A stretch of 15,548 nt of DNA from Silvanigrellaceae bacterium (GCA_049423385.1 JBMSQQ010000081.1:1-15548), one strand, 5' to 3'; positions 624-11,502 are shown, counted from the first letter of the stretch. The notes: generated by a model from the sequence alone, not told the origin. Made by a program: numbers and translations.

Positions 624-2114
624 TCACTGGCAGCTGGCGAGCAACGATGAGCCCGTGACCTCTTCTGGAGATGCTTCGGGCAACGCCAGGATCGATGCAC
701 CACCCGATGTGGGCTCGTCGTCGACGCTGTTGAGCACCAAAAGCGGGATTATTCCCGCAAAGGTGATCATCGACCCGCTGTCGCTCTTTCCAAAGCTGGC
801 AGCCAATTGCGAGTTGTTGACGTAAAATCTGAGCGTTCCTTTGGAACTCATTCCTCTCGACAGGCTTGGAACGGCATCCGGAGTCAGAACCCTTCCGCGC
901 AGCAGACCGAAAGACATGCTTTGTTCGCTTCCGCTTTTGAATATCTGGTTCGCCGCAATCACGTACTCGGCGGACAAAGGCAAAGCCTTTTCATTTTCGA
1001 TGCGGACGCGCTGCTTGATGTCGTTTCTGTGTGCCAAAAAAACTTCATGAAATTTGTCGAAGGCTTTCTTGGGCATCAGATTCACAAGTTCAACCGCTTT
1101 TTCCGTCATGAGGTTTTGGTTGATTCCAAAGCCCAACTCATCTGCCTTGGCCAGAATGGAACGCTTCTTGCCGTCGACGTCGATTTCCACCATGAACTTG
1201 TCAGCCAACGAAATAAGTTGACTTCGCACCGTGCACATCCCGGGATCCGAATTGCTGCCCGTGATCATCGCGCACATGTCCTTGTTCAGGAAATAGGCGA
1301 GGGGAGAATAGTTGGTCAGTCTCCACAGGCCTGTCAGGCCGTGAATGCGGTTGCTCCAAAGGTTGAAACTTTCTGCCATCCTGGGGTCGTTGCGGAACAG
1401 CGCCTTGAGCTGTGCACTGTGTTGTTCAAGAACGTTTCGCAAGGCACGGTATTGAACCGGTGGAAGCGAAGACGCCTTGATCTCAAGCGTGCGCGCTCCG
1501 GTATCGAGCGAAGACCAACAAGTTTGCTGACTGTTTTGCACCGTGAGTTTGTCTTCGCTGCTCGAAAGACAAATGTTGCGCATCAACTTGTCGCCCTGGC
1601 CCGCTGCTGCGTTTGACCGCACCTGAGAGGCATCTTCAAAGAAATACGGCAACTCAATTTTCATGATGTCGCGGATGCGTTCCGAGGCTTCTGTGTTGGC
1701 GAGTTTGTCGATCTCATCGAGCAACTGTTTTCGGCGGACAAAAAATTCGTCGGCCACGGGTATTTTCTGCAAATATCCAGAACTGATTCCCGAACGTCCC
1801 GGGACATAAACAGAGAGCGATATTTTTTCATCGTTGAGTAAATCTTCGCGAAAACAATGCAAAGCCGAATACGCGTTGACAACAATTGATGATTCACTTG
1901 AGCTGACCAGCGACAAAGTGGCAGTGCATGCCCTCGGGCCCACATTGATGAAACCACCCAACGGTGCAGCCTTGATCGAAGAATCTATTGCTCCTGCACC
2001 TCCAACAACAACTTGTGTCGAAGAGCAGGGTCCTGATGACTTTGGGCTGCAGGCTGTGATTGATGCCAGCGCAGCAAGAGAACCCAATCCGATTTTTGTC
2101 ATCTTTGAAAACAT
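624..2114 (-). CDS. Predicted lipoprotein with a chymotrypsin-like (S1/PA clan) serine protease signature and large insertions, ~496 aa
   Basis: Start re-placed at ATG 2114 (alternative 2102), which gives a signal peptide with lipobox (GSLAALASITA-C). Motifs: VVVGG, ACTATL, YSALHC, CWSSLDTG, GKSDSGS, and C-terminal TSGGASILALPE...SCQ. Colinear with 10027..11502. Confidence 0.7.
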   Translation of the reverse strand: MFSKMTKIGLGSLAALASITACSPKSSGPCSSTQVVVGGAGAIDSSIKAAPLGGFINVGPRACTATLSLVSSSESSIVVNAYSALHCFREDLLNDEKISLSVYVPGRSGISSGYLQKIPVADEFFVRRKQLLDEIDKLANTEASERIRDIMKIELPYFFEDASQVRSNAAAGQGDKLMRNICLSSSEDKLTVQNSQQTCWSSLDTGARTLEIKASSLPPVQYRALRNVLEQHSAQLKALFRNDPRMAESFNLWSNRIHGLTGLWRLTNYSPLAYFLNKDMCAMITGSNSDPGMCTVRSQLISLADKFMVEIDVDGKKRSILAKADELGFGINQNLMTEKAVELVNLMPKKAFDKFHEVFLAHRNDIKQRVRIENEKALPLSAEYVIAANQIFKSGSEQSMSFGLLRGRVLTPDAVPSLSRGMSSKGTLRFYVNNSQLAASFGKSDSGSMITFAGIIPLLVLNSVDDEPTSGGASILALPEASPEEVTGSSLLASCQ

Positions 2115-2270
2115 GCCTCGGGATCGGAAAATACTGCCGATTACTTTATCGAATTTAACTGTCGTGATTTCAGTTGGTTTCATTGGTTTTGGAACAGCTG
2201 CCATTCCGATGACCTGGCTCGAGAGTCCCGACAATATTCCGATAATTCCTGCGGAGCCAATTCATGTGAG

Positions 2271-3125
2271 TTGTCCGGAGGTCTCTTGGTTTTCGCCCGA
2301 ACATTGGTTTCAAGGTCGTTTTTTCTGTGTCTGCTGTTGAGTTGGCTCGCACAGTCAGGCGAAGCCTTGGCCAAGGGAAAATCATACACCGTACAGTTTG
2401 GAATTGGCCGCGGGCTCACATTTTACACGTCGCCAGAGCTGGAGACATTCAACAGCCGCCTTGGCAACAGTCCACGACTTGAAGTCGGCAAGGAATTCGG
2501 TCGGGCAGTGACACTCGAAGGCAGTTATGAATTTCTCAACAAAACAGAGACAATTTCCTGGGGGTTTGAAGCTCAACAATGGGCTGAAACCATTCGCGGT
2601 GTGGCGAAGTCCGGCGAGGATAACCCGAGAAGTGAGGCAACCTTGGCTTTTGCCCGCATCTGGTTGACAGGTGGAGTAAGGCTCTGGCCGTGGGTAGGTC
2701 CGATTATCGTGAAGAGGAACACCAATTTTATTGGTCGCGCGATTGTCATGAACAAGGCCCGCACACTCGGGAGCGGGTTTTTCTCACATCTTCGACTCGC
2801 AACAGGGCCATTGTTGTGGCGTCATGATTACCTTTTGTCCGACACCGCGAACCAAACCCAAATCGACTATGTGAGCCGAACCCTGTCATGGGAGGGGGGA
2901 CTCCGGTTGAGTTTGGGATGGCGTTTGGGGGAAATCTGCGATGTTGGAGTAGATATTTCCACAAGCAGGTCGGTGCCGGTGAAAACGGAACATGCCGTGG
3001 GGTCTTATTACCTGAACGGACGAGACAACAGCGACAACGGCGATGACTTGAATGTTCTCCAGCTTTCAAAGAGCGCCTGGCGGGGCAGCCAATCCGTGGT
3101 ATTTCTTCGGTTTTTCATACCATAA
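2271..3125 (+). CDS. Exported hypothetical protein, putative outer-membrane beta-barrel (start uncertain)
   Basis: Signal-like stretch ending EALA-KG. Many alternating hydrophobic/polar strands rich in G/W/F/Y (YTVQFGIGRG, VTLEGSYEF, LRLSLGWRL, DVGVDISTS) and a terminal amphipathic strand VVFLRFFIP. Confidence 0.55.
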   Translation: MSGGLLVFARTLVSRSFFLCLLLSWLAQSGEALAKGKSYTVQFGIGRGLTFYTSPELETFNSRLGNSPRLEVGKEFGRAVTLEGSYEFLNKTETISWGFEAQQWAETIRGVAKSGEDNPRSEATLAFARIWLTGGVRLWPWVGPIIVKRNTNFIGRAIVMNKARTLGSGFFSHLRLATGPLLWRHDYLLSDTANQTQIDYVSRTLSWEGGLRLSLGWRLGEICDVGVDISTSRSVPVKTEHAVGSYYLNGRDNSDNGDDLNVLQLSKSAWRGSQSVVFLRFFIP

Positions 3126-3221
3126 CCGATTGTGTGTCGAATATTTTCAAACAGTTCTCAAGTACGGCCCTGCAACACCGAAACAAAAGATGGGCAAGGA
3201 GGCCCTAAGGGTGAGGTTTGT

Positions 3222-4328
3222 ATGAAAAACTATTTTCGCCACGACGGATTGAAATCGAAGTCGGCTCTTGCTGGTCTTTCGCTTGGTTCGGTTTTGCTTG
3301 TCGCTGCATGCGGAACTCTTGAGGTGCGTGATCTCAAGGACACGTTCGGCAAAAAGAACAGCGTTTCAGGCTCCGACAATGGCGACATGGTTTCCGTCAA
3401 GCTTGGTCTCTCAGCCTCACCCGATCTGGCTTCCCAGCTCCTTCAGTTTGTCGATGGCTTTTACGCCACCACAGTTCCAAGCCAGAGTTTTTATTACAAG
3501 GTGACAGGATGCAAATCGGGCTTTTCAATTTCGACCCCTGCCGAAGTCACCTCAAACAGCGGAACCGTGAAACTTTATAAATTTGACAAGGATTGTCTGG
3601 TTGGGTTGGTTTCATTCAATTACGCCGGCAAGACCTACGTCCCGCAGACGGGTAGCGAGTTCAGCGGAACCGAAAATTCCACTGCCCTTTTCAAGGAGCA
3701 GAATGACCCGACTGATCTTCTGAAAATCAAGGTCATGAAGCAGTTGCCCAACGGAGCGAACAGCACCGGTGTGGTTGATGGTAGTGCTGCGAATTTCAGC
3801 TTCATGAAAGCGAAAAGCGGCGGAGCTGCGAATCTTGTTCGCTATTCCTCGGGTGTTGGCTTGAGTGTGAACGGGGTCGAATCGCCAAACGTCAGTGCGA
3901 TAGATTTGGAAATCACAAATATCGCAACCGACGGCAAGGCCGAATACAAGGCTGTCATGACATGTGGCAATCCTTTGGTCTCAGTCGGCGGCACCAACCA
4001 CGTTTGTCCGCACACGGCCAATGCTGCTGATGAGCAACTGATCAGCCATATGCAGATTAAAATCATAACCCGCAGCCCGACGACCAAAACAACCTATTCG
4101 GTTGCAGATTTGGACTCGATCATGGCAAGCGGAACCCAGTCCATCAGCGGCTCGGCAAAGTCTGCCGCTTCTGCATTTACGGTCACCGGTCTTGCTGGCG
4201 AGGGTGTTTTCACGAGCAACAAAAACCTGCTCGTCATAATTTCGTACACCGAGCCGAGCACAAACAGTCAGGGTACGAGTTATATTTACTACACGGCCGA
4301 CTACGGAACTCCAGATCAATCCCCGTGA
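3222..4328 (+). CDS. Hypothetical lipoprotein, 368 aa, S/T/G-rich and probably beta-rich
   Basis: GAGG Shine-Dalgarno at 3213-3216 precedes ATG 3222. Lipobox VLLVAA-C, plus four further Cys. Confidence 0.75.
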   Translation: MKNYFRHDGLKSKSALAGLSLGSVLLVAACGTLEVRDLKDTFGKKNSVSGSDNGDMVSVKLGLSASPDLASQLLQFVDGFYATTVPSQSFYYKVTGCKSGFSISTPAEVTSNSGTVKLYKFDKDCLVGLVSFNYAGKTYVPQTGSEFSGTENSTALFKEQNDPTDLLKIKVMKQLPNGANSTGVVDGSAANFSFMKAKSGGAANLVRYSSGVGLSVNGVESPNVSAIDLEITNIATDGKAEYKAVMTCGNPLVSVGGTNHVCPHTANAADEQLISHMQIKIITRSPTTKTTYSVADLDSIMASGTQSISGSAKSAASAFTVTGLAGEGVFTSNKNLLVIISYTEPSTNSQGTSYIYYTADYGTPDQSP

Positions 4329-4343
4329 CTTGTTGGCTGCAAG

Positions 4344-5006
4344 GTGGGTGCCCGGATGCCGAGTGGCGACGGTAGGTCGTTTTTCCGGATTGGCAAGACA
4401 TTGCGTTGGCTCGACTCAAGGCGGGCCAACCGTTTCGTTGTTGCGGTTGCACTGACACTTTGCATTGTCGGATGTGGATCCCGCTCTGCCACGAGTCAAA
4501 GGCTTTCTCCTGACTCCGCTTTCGACAAACTGAAAGCCAGCCCCCTGAACCCGCTGTTGTGTGAATACGTTGGGCAATACGGATGCGGATTTTTGTCTGT
4601 CTCCTCAGTTTATCTCGGTAAAAAAGTCGAGAGTTCCAATTTTCTTGTTCAGTGCGGTGCAAATGCACAGGGATACACGGTCATGCTGCGTGATCGCATC
4701 GGTGATGGGGTTGGCAGTGGATTGATTCTTCAAATGTACGGCAAGTCGACGTTCACCAACGGTTCATACACGTGTGGAGATCTGGAAACAGAAGTGGTCA
4801 ACAGTCAGCTCAAATTCAAGGCAGGAACCTGTGCACTTGGATTGCGCTTTGGTGATGCTGAAGCATGGTCGCAAAACGATGCGCCATGCAAGGTGACCCT
4901 GGAAGAACGTGATGGAAAAAATGCGGGCGTGATTGATTGTCCACAATTGGTCAATGGAAACTCAACATGGTCGTTCGACAATCCGGCGGTGTTCAAATGT
5001 CCATAA
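4344..5006 (+). CDS. Hypothetical Cys-rich lipoprotein (start uncertain)
   Basis: Basic N-region followed by VVAVALTLCIVG-C lipobox. Eight Cys in the mature part. 15-bp gap to the upstream gene and 2-bp gap to the downstream gene. Confidence 0.68.
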   Translation: MGARMPSGDGRSFFRIGKTLRWLDSRRANRFVVAVALTLCIVGCGSRSATSQRLSPDSAFDKLKASPLNPLLCEYVGQYGCGFLSVSSVYLGKKVESSNFLVQCGANAQGYTVMLRDRIGDGVGSGLILQMYGKSTFTNGSYTCGDLETEVVNSQLKFKAGTCALGLRFGDAEAWSQNDAPCKVTLEERDGKNAGVIDCPQLVNGNSTWSFDNPAVFKCP

Positions 5007-5008
5007 CC

Positions 5009-5929
5009 ATGAACACCGTGCGTTACTTTTTTTCATTTCTTTTTGTCCTCGCGGCTTGCGGTACAGGAAGCAAATCGACCGACGCGGCGGATTCCCAGCA
5101 AACACACCTGGTGTTGCATCCCACCTTTTCAATGCCCTTGCCCCAGGGATTTTCGGTTTCCGAAATTGCTATTCGAAGGGTTGATTGTGAGAATGAAGAC
5201 ACGGATGTCGAACATGTTTTGCCCGTGGTGGATAGCGAGGGAGTCTTTGTATTCAATGTTCCTGAAGTCGAAGTTCGTGAGTGTGGAATCCTTGTGCGTC
5301 GGGTCGTTTTGAAATCAAAAACCTCGGAAACAACCTTCAATCTTATCAAACAAACCAGAACTCAAAAAGGCAGCCGGGAAATATTCCTGGCTCCCACAAG
5401 CGGCACTGCTGGACTGACTCTGACGCTTCCCGAAAAAACGGCCATCAGGGTTGAACAGTCTGTCGACTGGCCGATGAACCTTGCCTACGACGATTACAGG
5501 GAGGGAAAGTTTCCGAGGGTTGCGACCTACACAGAGTCCACTTCCAGCTCGCTGAATTTGCGTCTGTCCGCCGTGGAGGATCGTGGAATTGTATCTTCGT
5601 CCTGGCGGGAATTGGGAATCACCCTCACGTGCGACACCTGGGCACAGTATCTCGAATGCTCGGGAGTCAGTTTGTTGAAGCTGCTGGGACGTTTTGTTCG
5701 CGAGGGAGATGTCAGTCTGGAAAGTCCTGCCCAAATTAAAACAGCACTTGCACAGAGCAGTTTGCAGTTTGAATCGACACTCTCTCACTTTATAGGTTCG
5801 GGTTTGCGATTCACCATGCTTTACCCTTTGGCTTGGCAAGACAAAACACTGCTGCTGCTGGTCGGCAGGGATCAGCTGTTCAACGTATTCAAGATAGACC
5901 AGAATTTAATCGCGACGATTAATCAGTGA
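5009..5929 (+). CDS. Hypothetical lipoprotein, 306 aa, probable distant paralog of 3222..4328
   Basis: ATG 5009 lies 2 nt after the previous stop. [17 protein letters not shown] lipobox, and four mature Cys in the same arrangement as 3222..4328. Confidence 0.72.
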
Positions 5930-8892: not shown

Positions 8893-9543
8893 ATGATGGA
8901 CGCGCTTCCACAATTGAGCAAGGTTGAGAAACTCGGTGAAATCCTTTTTCGCTTGCGGGACTACACGCCAATCCCCCTGATCCTCTGTTCAATCCTGTTC
9001 GCCCAGCCGACGTTGGTTTCGCTTCTTGCCGGTGGTTGCGTTGCGCTCGCAGGTGAGTTTATCCGCACCTATGGCGTCGCTTACATCGGGACCATTTCAC
9101 GAACCCGCAGTTACTCCAACGGCCAGCTCGTTCAGGAAGGTCCGTTCGCATTGTTGCGCAACCCACTTTACTTCGGAAACCTGGTGTTGAGTGTTGGCTT
9201 GTCGCTGATGAGCAATGTGAACTGGTTGCCAATGCTCGTCGTGGTCGTTTTCTATGCTCAATATATTCCTGTGGTGGCTTGGGAAGAGCGCAAGCTCACC
9301 CACATCTTTGGTGCTGCCTATGAGAATTACAAAACCAGCGTGCCAAACCGTTGGTTCCCAAGCTTGTCTAGAATCCGCGCGACAAGTTTGTATGCTGCGC
9401 CGAACTCCTGGGGGCCTGCGTTGCGCAGTGAAAAGCGAACCCTCACATCCGTGGTCAGTTACTTTGTGATCATGTCATTTTTGTATTGGGCACTTTCGGC
9501 CGGCGCTGTTCAATTGCCACTCATAACCCTGATTCAGCGCTGA
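8893..9543 (+). CDS. Isoprenylcysteine carboxylmethyltransferase / PEMT-family membrane methyltransferase
   Basis: Several transmembrane segments; LVQEGPFALLRNPLYFG and EERKL..IFG..YE.YK..VP.RWFP motifs. GAGG SD. Confidence 0.88.
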   Translation: MMDALPQLSKVEKLGEILFRLRDYTPIPLILCSILFAQPTLVSLLAGGCVALAGEFIRTYGVAYIGTISRTRSYSNGQLVQEGPFALLRNPLYFGNLVLSVGLSLMSNVNWLPMLVVVVFYAQYIPVVAWEERKLTHIFGAAYENYKTSVPNRWFPSLSRIRATSLYAAPNSWGPALRSEKRTLTSVVSYFVIMSFLYWALSAGAVQLPLITLIQR

Positions 9544-9667
9544 AAGTGTAAAAAAAAAATACAATCCAGCCTTGAATTGCGTGCGCTTTTCGTCGTTCCC
9601 GACAACTTGTCCCAACCCTGCAAATTTGTCCCGTTCACAGGTTGAGACCCACTCCGAAGACATCTTC

Positions 9668-9918
9668 AGTGGGCTCTGCGGGTGGTATTGCAACACTCCA
9701 GGGACGGAGCAAAACAGCCTCGATGCGCAGGATGCGCACCTGAATCTTGGAAGAAGATTCGGGACCGCCAGGAAGGCCGATTCTCAGGAAGAGAATCAGT
9801 CAGGGGGCGAGTTGATCGGCCGCTTTTTTGCGGAGCCCACTTTGTACTCCGGGTTTGGCACAACCAGCCCGGAGTCCGTTTCAAACATGGCCGGCAGGAT
9901 GCCGGCCATTGTCTTTTC
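9668..9918 (+). ncRNA. Candidate CsrB/RsmZ-like structured sRNA with multiple GGA-loop hairpins
   Basis: 13-bp closing stem 9668-9680/9829-9841 encloses five hairpins with loops AGGGAC, AGGAU, GGAAG, AGGAA and AGGAA. A further hairpin lies at 9846-9875, and a final AGGAU-loop hairpin at 9887-9909 has a U-rich tail. G-U pairs favour the + strand. Ends are approximate. Confidence 0.62.
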
Positions 9919-9919
9919 T
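9887..9919 (+). terminator. Rho-independent terminator-like hairpin
   Basis: ATGGCCGGC-AGGAT-GCCGGCCAT perfect 9-bp GC-rich stem followed by TGTCTTTTCT. Confidence 0.55.
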
Positions 9920-10026
9920 GAATCCATTCATGGGCGACGCGTCTTTGTAAAACCCCGTAATTCCGGATTTTTAGTGAATCCCAAAAATCCTTTCAGAATT
10001 CAGCGGCCGTCGTCGATAAGTCGTTC

Positions 10027-11502
10027 ATGAGACTGGTCGTTTTTCATATTGGCGCAGTTTTATTTCTGTCAGGTTGCAGTCCGAACACTGCACAGAAAAG
10101 CATGTGTGCCAAAGTGGGTTCTGTTCCGGTTGCCGGAGGCAAACTTTCAAACATGCTCGGCAGTGGACAAGTTCCTGCTGCTTGGGGCGGGGTGATCGAC
10201 CTGATTGAAAATGCCCAGACTCCAGACACCTCAGCGAGATACCGGTGCACGATGCACATGGACCTCATCCCGGATCCAGCAGGCCAGGCACCGAATCCCG
10301 ACCGCATCGCATTTTGGACTGCAGAACATTGTTTGAGATGGCTGAACGCGAATTACGTTGAATTGAATGTCTTTGATCCCCTCATGAAAAAGTATGTCCG
10401 CTTTGAAGTGAAGCTCGACGAAGTCGAACGTTTCAAGCAAGGCAAGGAACTTTTCAGGCGACTCAAACCAGATGGGCTCGAACAGTTTGTGAATGCAGCC
10501 CAACGTCCGGCCACGGGAATTGTCGAGCGTTCTGCACCCGTCTGCAAATCCGACACCGCAACTCTGCTTACGCAGTATCCAGGTTCAGAGATTATTTGCA
10601 GTTCCGTTTTGGATCTGGCGAGGCTTGAAGGGACTTTGTCGGATGCATCCAAGGCCAGACCCGAGGTCGTCGAGACGGTTTCGCGCATGCGTGCTGAGCT
10701 TGTCAAAAACGAAGAAAGCGAAATTGCCAAAGCCAAGACTCTTGAACCCTTGATAGGCAGCACGGCTCTCCACAATATGCTTTGGTGGTATGACAATTGG
10801 CGAAAACAGGTTGGGCTCGTCACCAAATGGCGTGGCTACGAGGGACTCACGGATATCATTGAAAGTGTTCGACTGTGCGCAGCAGGCGATTTCAGCGGAA
10901 TCTGCAATCAGGAGTTCCGCGACTATTTTGCAGACAGTTTGAACGAGTACAACAGGTTGGCAACCGCCGGACAAACGTACCGTGAATTTTTGCAGTTCGA
11001 AGTCAACCGGCCCGAGACCAGCACGAGTCACAACCTGCAATGGCTTCTTAATTCACAAAAAAATGTACAAAACAGCCTTGGATTATTGGGCCTCGTTTCG
11101 ATGGGCAGCAACTTTCTTCGCAGAGTTGCGGACCATAAAGCGGAAAACGTGGGCACGACCCTGGGAACGACAGGACCCTTGTTTTATGGCGCGCTGGGTT
11201 TGAAGGATTTCGAGACCGCCGACACGGCACTGATTAGCCAAAGGATGCATTTTTTCGACAAGACAATCTTGTTTCGCTACAGTGCCGGTGATGAAAATCA
11301 CATTTACTATTTGAACCAGCCGGGCGATTCCGGAACTGTTTTTTTAACAGGAATTGTGCCTATCGGCATTGTCAGCACCGTGAATGGAAAAGAAACCTAG
11401 GGCGGAGCATCCGTCACGCCGTTGCCCGAGTACGTCGACGAAGTGGAAGACAAAAACACCAACTCAGCGCAAAAAAAAGCCCCGACACTGGACTGCAAGT
11501 GA
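10027..11502 (+). CDS. Lipoprotein with chymotrypsin-like serine protease signature, interrupted by one in-frame TAG at 11398-11400 (457 aa if terminated, 491 aa if read through)
   Basis: Lipobox VLFLSG-C; PVAGG, YRCTM, FWTAEHC, CSSVLDLARL, QPGDSGT. After the TAG the frame continues GGASVTPLPEYVDEVEDKNTNSAQKKAPTLDCK-TGA(11500-11502), matching the C-terminus of the paralog at 624..2114. Confidence 0.72.

Follow-up and report, generated by a model that had tools for sequence, protein, structure and literature searches.

A conserved GGA-loop RNA in Silvanigrellaceae with the design of a CsrA sponge

A structured RNA gene behind a methyltransferase gene

We analyzed a 15,548-nucleotide stretch of DNA from a Silvanigrellaceae bacterium (GCA_049423385.1, JBMSQQ010000081.1:1-15548; hereafter, the window). 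It carries a non-coding RNA gene of ~270 nt on the plus strand, at approximately 9652 to 9919, with its own terminator. The gene lies in a gap of 483 bp between the stop, at 9543, of a gene for a PEMT-like methyltransferase (8893 to 9543; Pfam PF04191) and the start, at 10027, of the next open reading frame (ORF). An original prediction, made from the window sequence, had described this gap at the same size and proposed that it holds a multivalent RNA sponge for the regulator CsrA. It also called the downstream ORF (10027 to 11400, plus strand, 457 amino acids) protease-like, a label for which a Pfam search of that ORF returns no match. The Silvanigrellaceae belong to the Oligoflexia, within the Bdellovibrionota (NCBI). 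The host, a freshwater bacterium, is therefore placed outside the Gammaproteobacteria, as had been predicted from its gene content. This placement rests on submitters' labels for genomes of the same genus, some of which read Silvanigrellaceae, Silvanigrella, or Oligoflexia, with one disagreeing label (Betaproteobacteria).

The predicted architecture comprises three nested closing stems (P1 to P3), an inner stem (P4), five hairpins (H1 to H5), a 3' hairpin (H6), and a terminator. A 5' leader (9652 to 9667, plus strand, as are all the elements below) holds a conserved CUCCGAAG, of which CCGA is invariant in 13 sequences. The 5' strands of the closing stems, predicted by RNAalifold with compensatory changes, occupy 9668 to 9694 (P1, 9668 to 9678; P2, 9681 to 9686; P3, 9691 to 9694). 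Within them stand H1 (CUCC-AGGGAC-GGAG, 9696 to 9709); an A-rich linker, CAAAACA, that runs into the 5' strand of P4 (9710 to 9721 together; P4 pairs 9717 to 9721 with 9804 to 9808); H2 (UGCGC-AGGAU-GCGCA, 9724 to 9738, containing CAGGAUG); H3 (9739 to 9763, loop GGAAG); H4 (GCC-AGGAA-GGC, 9767 to 9777, containing CAGGAAG); and H5 (GAUUCUC-AGGAA-GAGAAUC, 9779 to 9797, also containing CAGGAAG). The segment from 9798 to 9841 consists of an unpaired G-rich stretch followed by the 3' strands of P4 (9804 to 9808), P3 (9811 to 9814), P2 (9819 to 9824), and P1 (9831 to 9841). H6 (ACUCCGGG...CCCGGAGU, 9846 to 9875) is a 3' extension found in the host genus only. The RNA ends with an intrinsic terminator (9887 to 9919), made up of the hairpin AUGGCCGGC-AGGAU-GCCGGCCAU (9887 to 9909) and a U-rich tail, TGTCTTTTCT.

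The six GGA hairpins of the original prediction (H1 to H5 and the terminator) are all present at these positions; an independent hairpin script recovers five, and H4, with its 3-bp stem, is read from the sequence. The CAGGA(T/A)G context that it described is found at four sites. Folding of both strands shows a stable structure, with −130.7 kcal/mol for 9640 to 9925 on the plus strand (z = −5.6, 200 shuffles). Folding energy alone does not choose the strand, since the minus strand (z = −5.2) comes close. The plus strand fits because the structure has many G-U pairs and a conserved terminator hairpin with its T-run. This last hairpin is the single terminator-like site between 9400 and 10100, on the plus strand, and at its position a hairpin with a T-run is found in each of the 12 aligned homologues.

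Stems covary and GGA loops persist within the host genus

BLASTN finds the region in 11 of the 12 other host-genus genomes. Trained on 12 sequences, a covariance model (R1) detects exactly one copy in each of the 13 host-genus genomes, including the one missed by BLAST. For the full RNA, RNAalifold predicts a structure of 63 pairs, and compensatory changes occur at 20 of these. In the alignment of 15 distinct genus sequences, standard pairing is seen in 99.2% of cells, compared with 38 to 44% when the partners are slid by one to three columns. Pairs that change on both sides number 16 of 53 against 0 to 3 in the slid controls, and none of 500 shuffles matches the observed values; these pairing statistics are somewhat favored because the 15-sequence alignment was fitted to the R1 model. 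Double changes occur in 3 of the 11 P1 pairs (with 100% of cells paired), in 3 of 5 pairs of P4, and in 3 of 5 pairs of the H2 stem. The H3 stem also covaries, and the H6 stem is swapped for different complementary sequences among relatives.

While these stems change, three of the loops do not. All 15 distinct sequences have A(G/U)GGA(C/A) in H1, AGGA(U/A/G) in H2, and AGGA in H5, where the last loop base takes all four letters; in H4, AGGA is found in 9 of the 15. Within the genus, covarying stems thus accompany the invariant GGA loops of H1, H2, and H5, the combination that the original prediction proposed to look for in relatives. A pattern derived from the RNA returns 19 loci in species-representative genomes, 11 of which are confirmed by the model; the model rejects the other eight as members. 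In a pattern scan of metagenomes, 4 of 11 loci are true members. Three identical AT-rich metagenome contigs (14 bits) are chance matches, folding no better than shuffles (z = 0.16).

The same comparison bears on whether the region encodes a small protein. Three ORFs overlap it (9572 to 10030, 9682 to 9921, and 9666 to 9884), and in the window's genome these frames stay open for ~90 codons. No frame is open across the homologues: the same frames contain stops in other species, indels of 1 to 2 nt are common, and the substitutions in the stems are compensatory. Pfam has no match for 9572 to 10030. A protein-coding gene is thus an extremely improbable explanation of the locus.

A probably independent gene with a conserved upstream block

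Ahead of the RNA lies a conserved upstream block (9598 to 9638, plus strand) with GACAA at 9601 to 9605, TGCAAA at 9619 to 9624, and CCGTTCA at 9631 to 9637, which we presume to be a promoter or a regulator site. Its motif pair can be written GACAA / TGCAAATTTGTCCCGTTCA, and the columns GACAA, GCAA, and C-T--A do not vary among 13 genus sequences. The 41-nt block occurs once in the genome, and its 18-nt core has no convincing second copy there. By eye, the block fits no sigma-54, sigma-28, or extracytoplasmic function (ECF) sigma factor spacing. It recurs before the copy of the RNA in another genus (the third genus, below).

The genes around the RNA allow the locus to be weighed as a cis-acting element, that is, as the 3' untranslated region of the PEMT-like gene or the leader of the downstream gene. 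PEMT-like and RdgC-like genes stand upstream in most host-genus species. Eleven of 12 same-genus loci match the PEMT-like gene, and in these the RNA follows it on its 3' side in the same orientation, an arrangement that such an element would share. Against this, one host-genus genome (G011) has its PEMT gene on a different contig and an unrelated ORF before the RNA, and it still keeps the upstream block. The downstream neighbor varies or is convergent: in 4 of 12 same-genus loci, a homologue of a 584-amino acid ORF is next downstream, on the opposite strand. In five other genera of the family, the PEMT gene is kept, a different gene stands directly behind it, and nothing RNA-like is found there. 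In a sister genus, the copy of the RNA has unrelated neighbors on either side and a promoter and terminator of its own. We therefore regard a cis-acting role as very unlikely, and comparative genomics identifies the RNA as a putative independent gene.

Homologues in two further genera

Beyond the host genus, BLASTN returns no match, and R1 detects no copy in 20 other genomes of the family (E ≤ 0.01) and gives noise only in 118 other genomes of the class. These blanks reflect a limit of sensitivity, not absence, because a joint model (R2) later found homologues. In a complete sister-genus genome (G041, 32% G+C), a hairpin scan covered 86% of the genome. Among the windows with two hairpins, one stood out, located between a carboxypeptidase-like gene and prs (G041:C1:1576415-1576610; L277:1530-1714; minus strand).

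The RNA at this sister-genus locus has a near-consensus sigma-70 promoter ahead of it, in which a spacer separates TTGACA from TATAAA. Directly 3' of the −10 box is ACGAAAG, the counterpart of the window RNA's leader. Its long closing stem (P1), followed by a U-run, doubles as the terminator and encloses the hairpins CCCC-AAGGAA-GGGG, CCUA-UGGA-UGGG, and ACUCC-AAGGAA-GGAGU. The fold has a z score of −4.7. BLAST finds this RNA in 10 of 13 genomes of the sister genus, and 19 of its 46 predicted pairs have compensatory changes. In three of these genomes (G042, G043, and G023; loci L298, L300, and L301), an additional 24-nt hairpin is inserted behind the A-rich linker.

When aligned, the window RNA and the sister-genus RNA are collinear. 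They share, in order, an outer stem AGCG...CGCU followed by U's, a UGCAA stem, H1 with the A-rich linker, a plain hairpin, H4, and H5, the last being GAUUCUAAGGAUGGAAUC in the sister-genus RNA and GAUUCUCAGGAAGAGAAUC in the window. H2 is restricted to the host genus and is missing from the sister-genus RNA. The two genera also differ at the 3' end: in the host genus (window positions 9831 to 9847), P1 is followed by CUUUGU(U/A)C, and in the sister genus, a full U-run follows P1 and the RNA ends there. H6 and the present terminator may have been added 3' of P1 at a later time.

The joint covariance model, R2, covers the RNAs of both genera. It detects all 13 host-genus genomes, 11 of the 13 sister-genus genomes (including one non-training sequence at 91.7 bits), and the single genome of a third genus (27 bits, E = 1e-4), for a total of 25 of 33 family genomes. 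None of 98 genomes in 18 other families of the class has a match. Weak R2 matches in two genomes (G016, 20.5 bits; G048, 17.1 bits) did not resemble members. The third-genus copy (L307:1440-1655, G017:C239, plus strand) is preceded by TGCAATTTTGTTCCGTTCAG...CTTCCGAAA, the window's upstream block, which there reads TGCAA-TTTGT-CCGTTCAG / CCGAA. This shared block supports the homology of the copy by evidence from outside the RNA itself. The closing stem of the copy is not followed by an obvious terminator. Elsewhere in the same genome (L153, G017:C337), the first 60 bases after the PEMT-like gene hold the block again, as GCAAATTTTCTCCCGTTC, ahead of a glycogen-phosphorylase-like gene, which suggests a shared promoter or operator.

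Across the 25 sequences from three genera, both sides have changed in 28 of 31 modelled pairs; the share of paired cells is 89.9%, compared with 42 to 50% in slid controls. GGA is retained in the H1 loop of all 25 sequences and in the H5 loop of 24. In the H5 stem, each of the six modelled pairs has changed on both sides, and pairing holds in 100% of cells. The H4 loop has GGA in 19 of 25 sequences (7/13, 11/11, and 1/1 by genus). Taken together, the alignments indicate that selection over three genera holds GGA at the tips of short hairpins while their stems drift.

CsrA, known RNA families, and the sponge reading

A csrA partner, which the original prediction presupposed, is present. The window's genome has one csrA (74 bits; L001:1228-1659, G000:C103, minus strand), and the gene is found, always in single copy, in 32 of 33 family genomes, the exception being a genome that is 70% complete. 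Residues 1 to 55 of the protein, including a VHREEIY stretch, align with solved RsmA/CsrA chains (60 to 61 bits), and the core aligns with the FliW-bound CsrA of Geobacillus at 57.8 bits, scores from which the alignment does not tell the CsrA type. The C-terminal tail of ~85 residues is of low complexity and has no solved relative in the PDB. Across the family, the open frame around csrA varies in length between 90 and 271 amino acids.

We compared the RNA with known families. It has no Rfam match at the gathering score, either in the window or at four loci of related RNAs, a result that covers the versions from all three genera, and none of CsrB, CsrC, RsmX, RsmY, or PrrB_RsmZ (clan CL00106) claims it. 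It is also not 6S RNA: RF00013 has no match in the window, and the genome's 6S RNA is on another contig (C12:9843-10031, plus strand, 53.5 bits). A weak rsmX match (21.5 bits, below the cut-off of 56) does align the GGA hairpins. We reject it as evidence because plain terminators elsewhere and 8 of 14 control genomes give equal or better scores, which places it at noise level. On inspection, ten other weak rsmX matches lack A(N)GGA hairpins and fall on terminators or on sequence adjacent to tRNAs. The window RNA thus appears to be a new family of the same design as CsrB and RsmZ, and not their homologue.

The closest systems by design are RsmX, RsmY, and RsmZ of Pseudomonas and relatives (RF02144, RF00195, and RF00166; CL00106). 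Like these, the window RNA falls within the size range of 110 to 270 nt, has several short hairpins with A(N)GGA apical loops as well as unpaired GGA, appears to be encoded by a free-standing gene, has a terminator hairpin that can carry GGA, and occurs in a genome with a csrA/rsmA homologue. Unlike them, its hairpins are enclosed by three nested closing stems rather than strung along the RNA, it has neither detectable homology nor a GacA-box-like site, and its host is in the Bdellovibrionota with FliW present. In CsrB and CsrC, the motif CAGGA(U/A/C)G is repeated in hairpin loops, and CsrB carries about 18 to 22 sites. The window RNA has four copies of this motif in common with CsrB and CsrC of Enterobacteria (RF00018 and RF00084). 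It differs from them in having three to five sites, no homology, and a different architecture. The flaA and hag leaders of Campylobacter jejuni and Bacillus subtilis offer a third comparison, from organisms of the same kind, with CsrA, FliW, and flagellins. They also present GGA in neighboring hairpin loops. They are, however, parts of target messenger RNAs (mRNAs), whereas the window RNA has a non-coding gene of its own, with no linkage to flagellar genes.

From this design, the conserved loops, and the presence of csrA, we infer that the window RNA is a CsrA-titrating sponge of a new family, with a probability of roughly 0.6. This supports the multivalent CsrA sponge of the original prediction, though not as a homologue of CsrB or RsmZ. 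Each of that prediction's refuting conditions open to computation was checked, and none refutes it. The analysis shows the RNA gene, its structure, its loop conservation, its distribution, and the presence of csrA and fliW, whereas CsrA binding, titration, and the physiological signal are the parts that we infer. CsrA dimers bind pairs of sites at a preferred spacing. The three nested closing stems enclose a multi-branch loop from which short hairpins with 5- to 6-nt A(N)GGA loops project. In the proposed mechanism, three to five such loops on one compact scaffold would bind dimers of the single CsrA. H4 and H5, ~16 nt apart, would suit one dimer, and H1 and H2, which are further off, or the terminator loop could take further dimers. 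Accumulation of the RNA, in response to a putative physiological signal, would then draw CsrA off mRNA leaders, as RsmX/Y/Z and CsrB/C do in the Gammaproteobacteria.

The density of such hairpins depends on how they are defined. We defined a CsrA-type hairpin as a stem of 4 bp or more that closes a 5- to 6-nt loop beginning with A(N)GGA. The genome (3.47 Mb) contains 883 of these, and the locus is the sole 250-nt window holding four. The comparative evidence weighs more, because this definition was fixed after the locus had been seen.

A hint of transcription comes from public runs. A run search returns two metatranscriptomic rows of equal size (X1 and X2; 0.13 share of words), probably one library filed twice. 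A 171-nt contig, with adapters at both ends, covers 9675 to 9808 on the plus strand with 2 differences in 134, and the flanking genes have no cover (9400 to 10100 examined). Such contig-level evidence shows neither the ends of the RNA nor its level, and RNA libraries can contain DNA. For the discrete transcript that was predicted, the contig is a hint of expression over part of the length. What we take to be the Illumina second-read adapter precedes the plus strand on this contig, a weak hint of plus-strand RNA if the library is of the dUTP type.

Several observations weigh against the sponge reading. Some concern the number of sites. GGA is present in each of the six hairpin loops originally described, but in two of them it is not conserved: the H3 loop has it in 3 of 15 distinct genus sequences, and the terminator loop, CAGGA(U/A), in 6 of 12 aligned homologues. 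The genus alignment thus points to three strictly constrained sites, one partly constrained, and two that are lineage-specific, which is few. The total GGA count per core is 4 to 9 versus 2.9 to 4.9 expected from composition (1 to 2.4 times), and 2 of 13 host-genus members do not exceed the expectation. A permissive definition, which accepts GGA anywhere in a 4- to 8-nt loop with four or more stem pairs, yields 20,866 hairpins genome-wide and as many as seven per window; by this measure the locus is no outlier.

Others concern expression and regulation. The evidence for expression is one short contig, possibly a single molecule. No sigma-70 consensus lies upstream of the window RNA. A search for the GacA box itself, with TGTAAG-N6-CTTACA as the consensus and up to three mismatches, finds no such site for a GacA/UvrY-type regulator near the RNA; the two matches farther away in the window do not exceed chance. 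The distribution of the RNA is also narrower than that of its presumed partner, with no R2 match in six genomes from five other family genera, all of which have csrA. To these are added the Rfam blank, the noise-level rsmX score, and the near-universal presence of FliW, discussed below.

Conservation outside the loops also has to be accounted for. The junction bases GA (15/15) and AUCG (14/15) are conserved, as is UUUG, and the linker (A/C)AAAA(A/C)A is present in all 15 genus sequences. Together, they point to constraints beyond those of a plain sponge. They raise the alternative of a structured small RNA (sRNA) with another partner or mode of action, in which the Shine-Dalgarno-like AGGA loops base-pair with RNAs that contain UCC(U) or with the anti-Shine-Dalgarno sequence of 16S ribosomal RNA, or bind a protein other than CsrA. 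The junctions and A-rich linker could serve that partner, for example as an Hfq-type A-rich site. Junction bases conserved as strongly as the GGA loops, a GGA count modestly above expectation, the lack of homology to known sponges, and the prior service of FliW as CsrA antagonist are all in keeping with this alternative. Yet what survives across three genera is GGA in apical loops on drifting stems, the established geometry of a CsrA site; csrA is nearly ubiquitous in the family, and no neighboring gene suggests another partner. We consider a different partner unlikely, though it is the foremost competitor of the sponge reading.

A candidate sponge RNA alongside FliW

The original prediction set sponge RNAs against FliW as the CsrA antagonist of other lineages. 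That contrast is inapplicable in the window's genome because FliW is present too: one fliW (143.6 bits) is found there, on a different contig from csrA, together with the candidate RNA. Among family genomes, 31 of 33 have fliW, always in single copy, a further point against the sponge reading. The two genes are unlinked and lie megabases apart in complete family genomes. We did not encounter a csrA-adjacent fliW in a flagellar operon, and the neighbors of both genes have no flagellar Pfam family.

The genome has at least six flagellin genes. In some flagellin leaders, a GGA hairpin precedes the ribosome-binding site, with further GGA nearby (G000:C21:2447, minus strand; C13:22988 and C13:22046, plus strand; e.g., gggtc-AGGAA-gaccc), as expected if CsrA also controls flagellin here. 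These hairpins resemble those of hag and flaA leaders bound by CsrA. In addition, a terminator-like hairpin followed by nine T's (GGGCCGGC-AGGAU-GCUGGCCC; G000:C21, ~1440 to 1475, minus strand) lies ~0.5 kb 3' of a flagellin N-terminal match and nearly equals the terminator of the sRNA, GGCCGGC-AGGAU-GCCGGCC.

These flagellin elements bear on whether CsrA might bind the RNA without being titrated by it. CsrA could protect, process, or localize the RNA, or the RNA could join CsrA with FliW or flagellin mRNAs, leaving the free pool unchanged. The similar GGA hairpins in some flagellin leaders and one flagellin terminator would suit such a role, as would the few sites per molecule and the coexistence of FliW. 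The data do not call for a scaffold role, however, and the near-consensus sigma-70 promoter in the sister genus would allow the high copy number of a sponge. We judge this explanation improbable, and more so than a different partner.

If the RNA is instead a sponge, FliW would keep coupling CsrA to flagellin export, and the RNA would provide a second, flagellum-independent input. The Silvanigrellaceae would then have a dual-antagonist Csr circuit, in which CsrA is checked both by FliW and by an independently arisen, dedicated sponge RNA, a proposal to which we give even odds.

Csr-family sRNAs have been described for the Gammaproteobacteria, with FliW as a protein antagonist (PMC7652899). Two other papers describe sRNA and FliW antagonists as mutually exclusive or anti-correlated, which also counts against the sponge reading (PMC7366521, PMC4894983). 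One of them states that many bacteria are without such sRNAs and that CsrB/C are anti-correlated with FliW, calls the cooperation of FliW with RNA-mediated control "unknown," and reports that the flaA leader titrates CsrA beside FliW (PMC4894983). In Bdellovibrio, CsrA works in a heterologous assay, and its regulation is described as little known (PMC13443453). Among the titles listed for CsrA with Bdellovibrio or Silvanigrella, subscription journals being outside the coverage, none concerns a sponge RNA in Bdellovibrionota.

If true, the sponge reading would provide the first dedicated CsrA sponge outside the Gammaproteobacteria and would show that the two kinds of antagonist, sponge RNA and FliW, need not exclude each other. 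Here, a comparatively well-supported RNA family with the design of a sponge occurs in a Bdellovibrionota family that carries both csrA and fliW. It adds a structured bacterial RNA family that Rfam does not hold and that spans at least three Silvanigrellaceae genera. Because the sister genus has closed or nearly closed genomes and a textbook promoter and terminator for this RNA, ordinary methods can test whether one CsrA answers to both a sponge RNA and FliW.

Other features of the window and tandem motifs in the family

A search across the family for CAGGAHG repeated three times with short gaps matched other genera only in coding tandem repeats, which we rejected. Within the window, positions 624 to 5929 hold a run of five long ORFs (536, 284, 398, 220, and 330 amino acids) without a Pfam match. 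The 457-amino acid ORF behind the RNA has no counterpart in 12 same-genus loci and resembles a species-specific insertion between the RNA and the 584-amino acid ORF.

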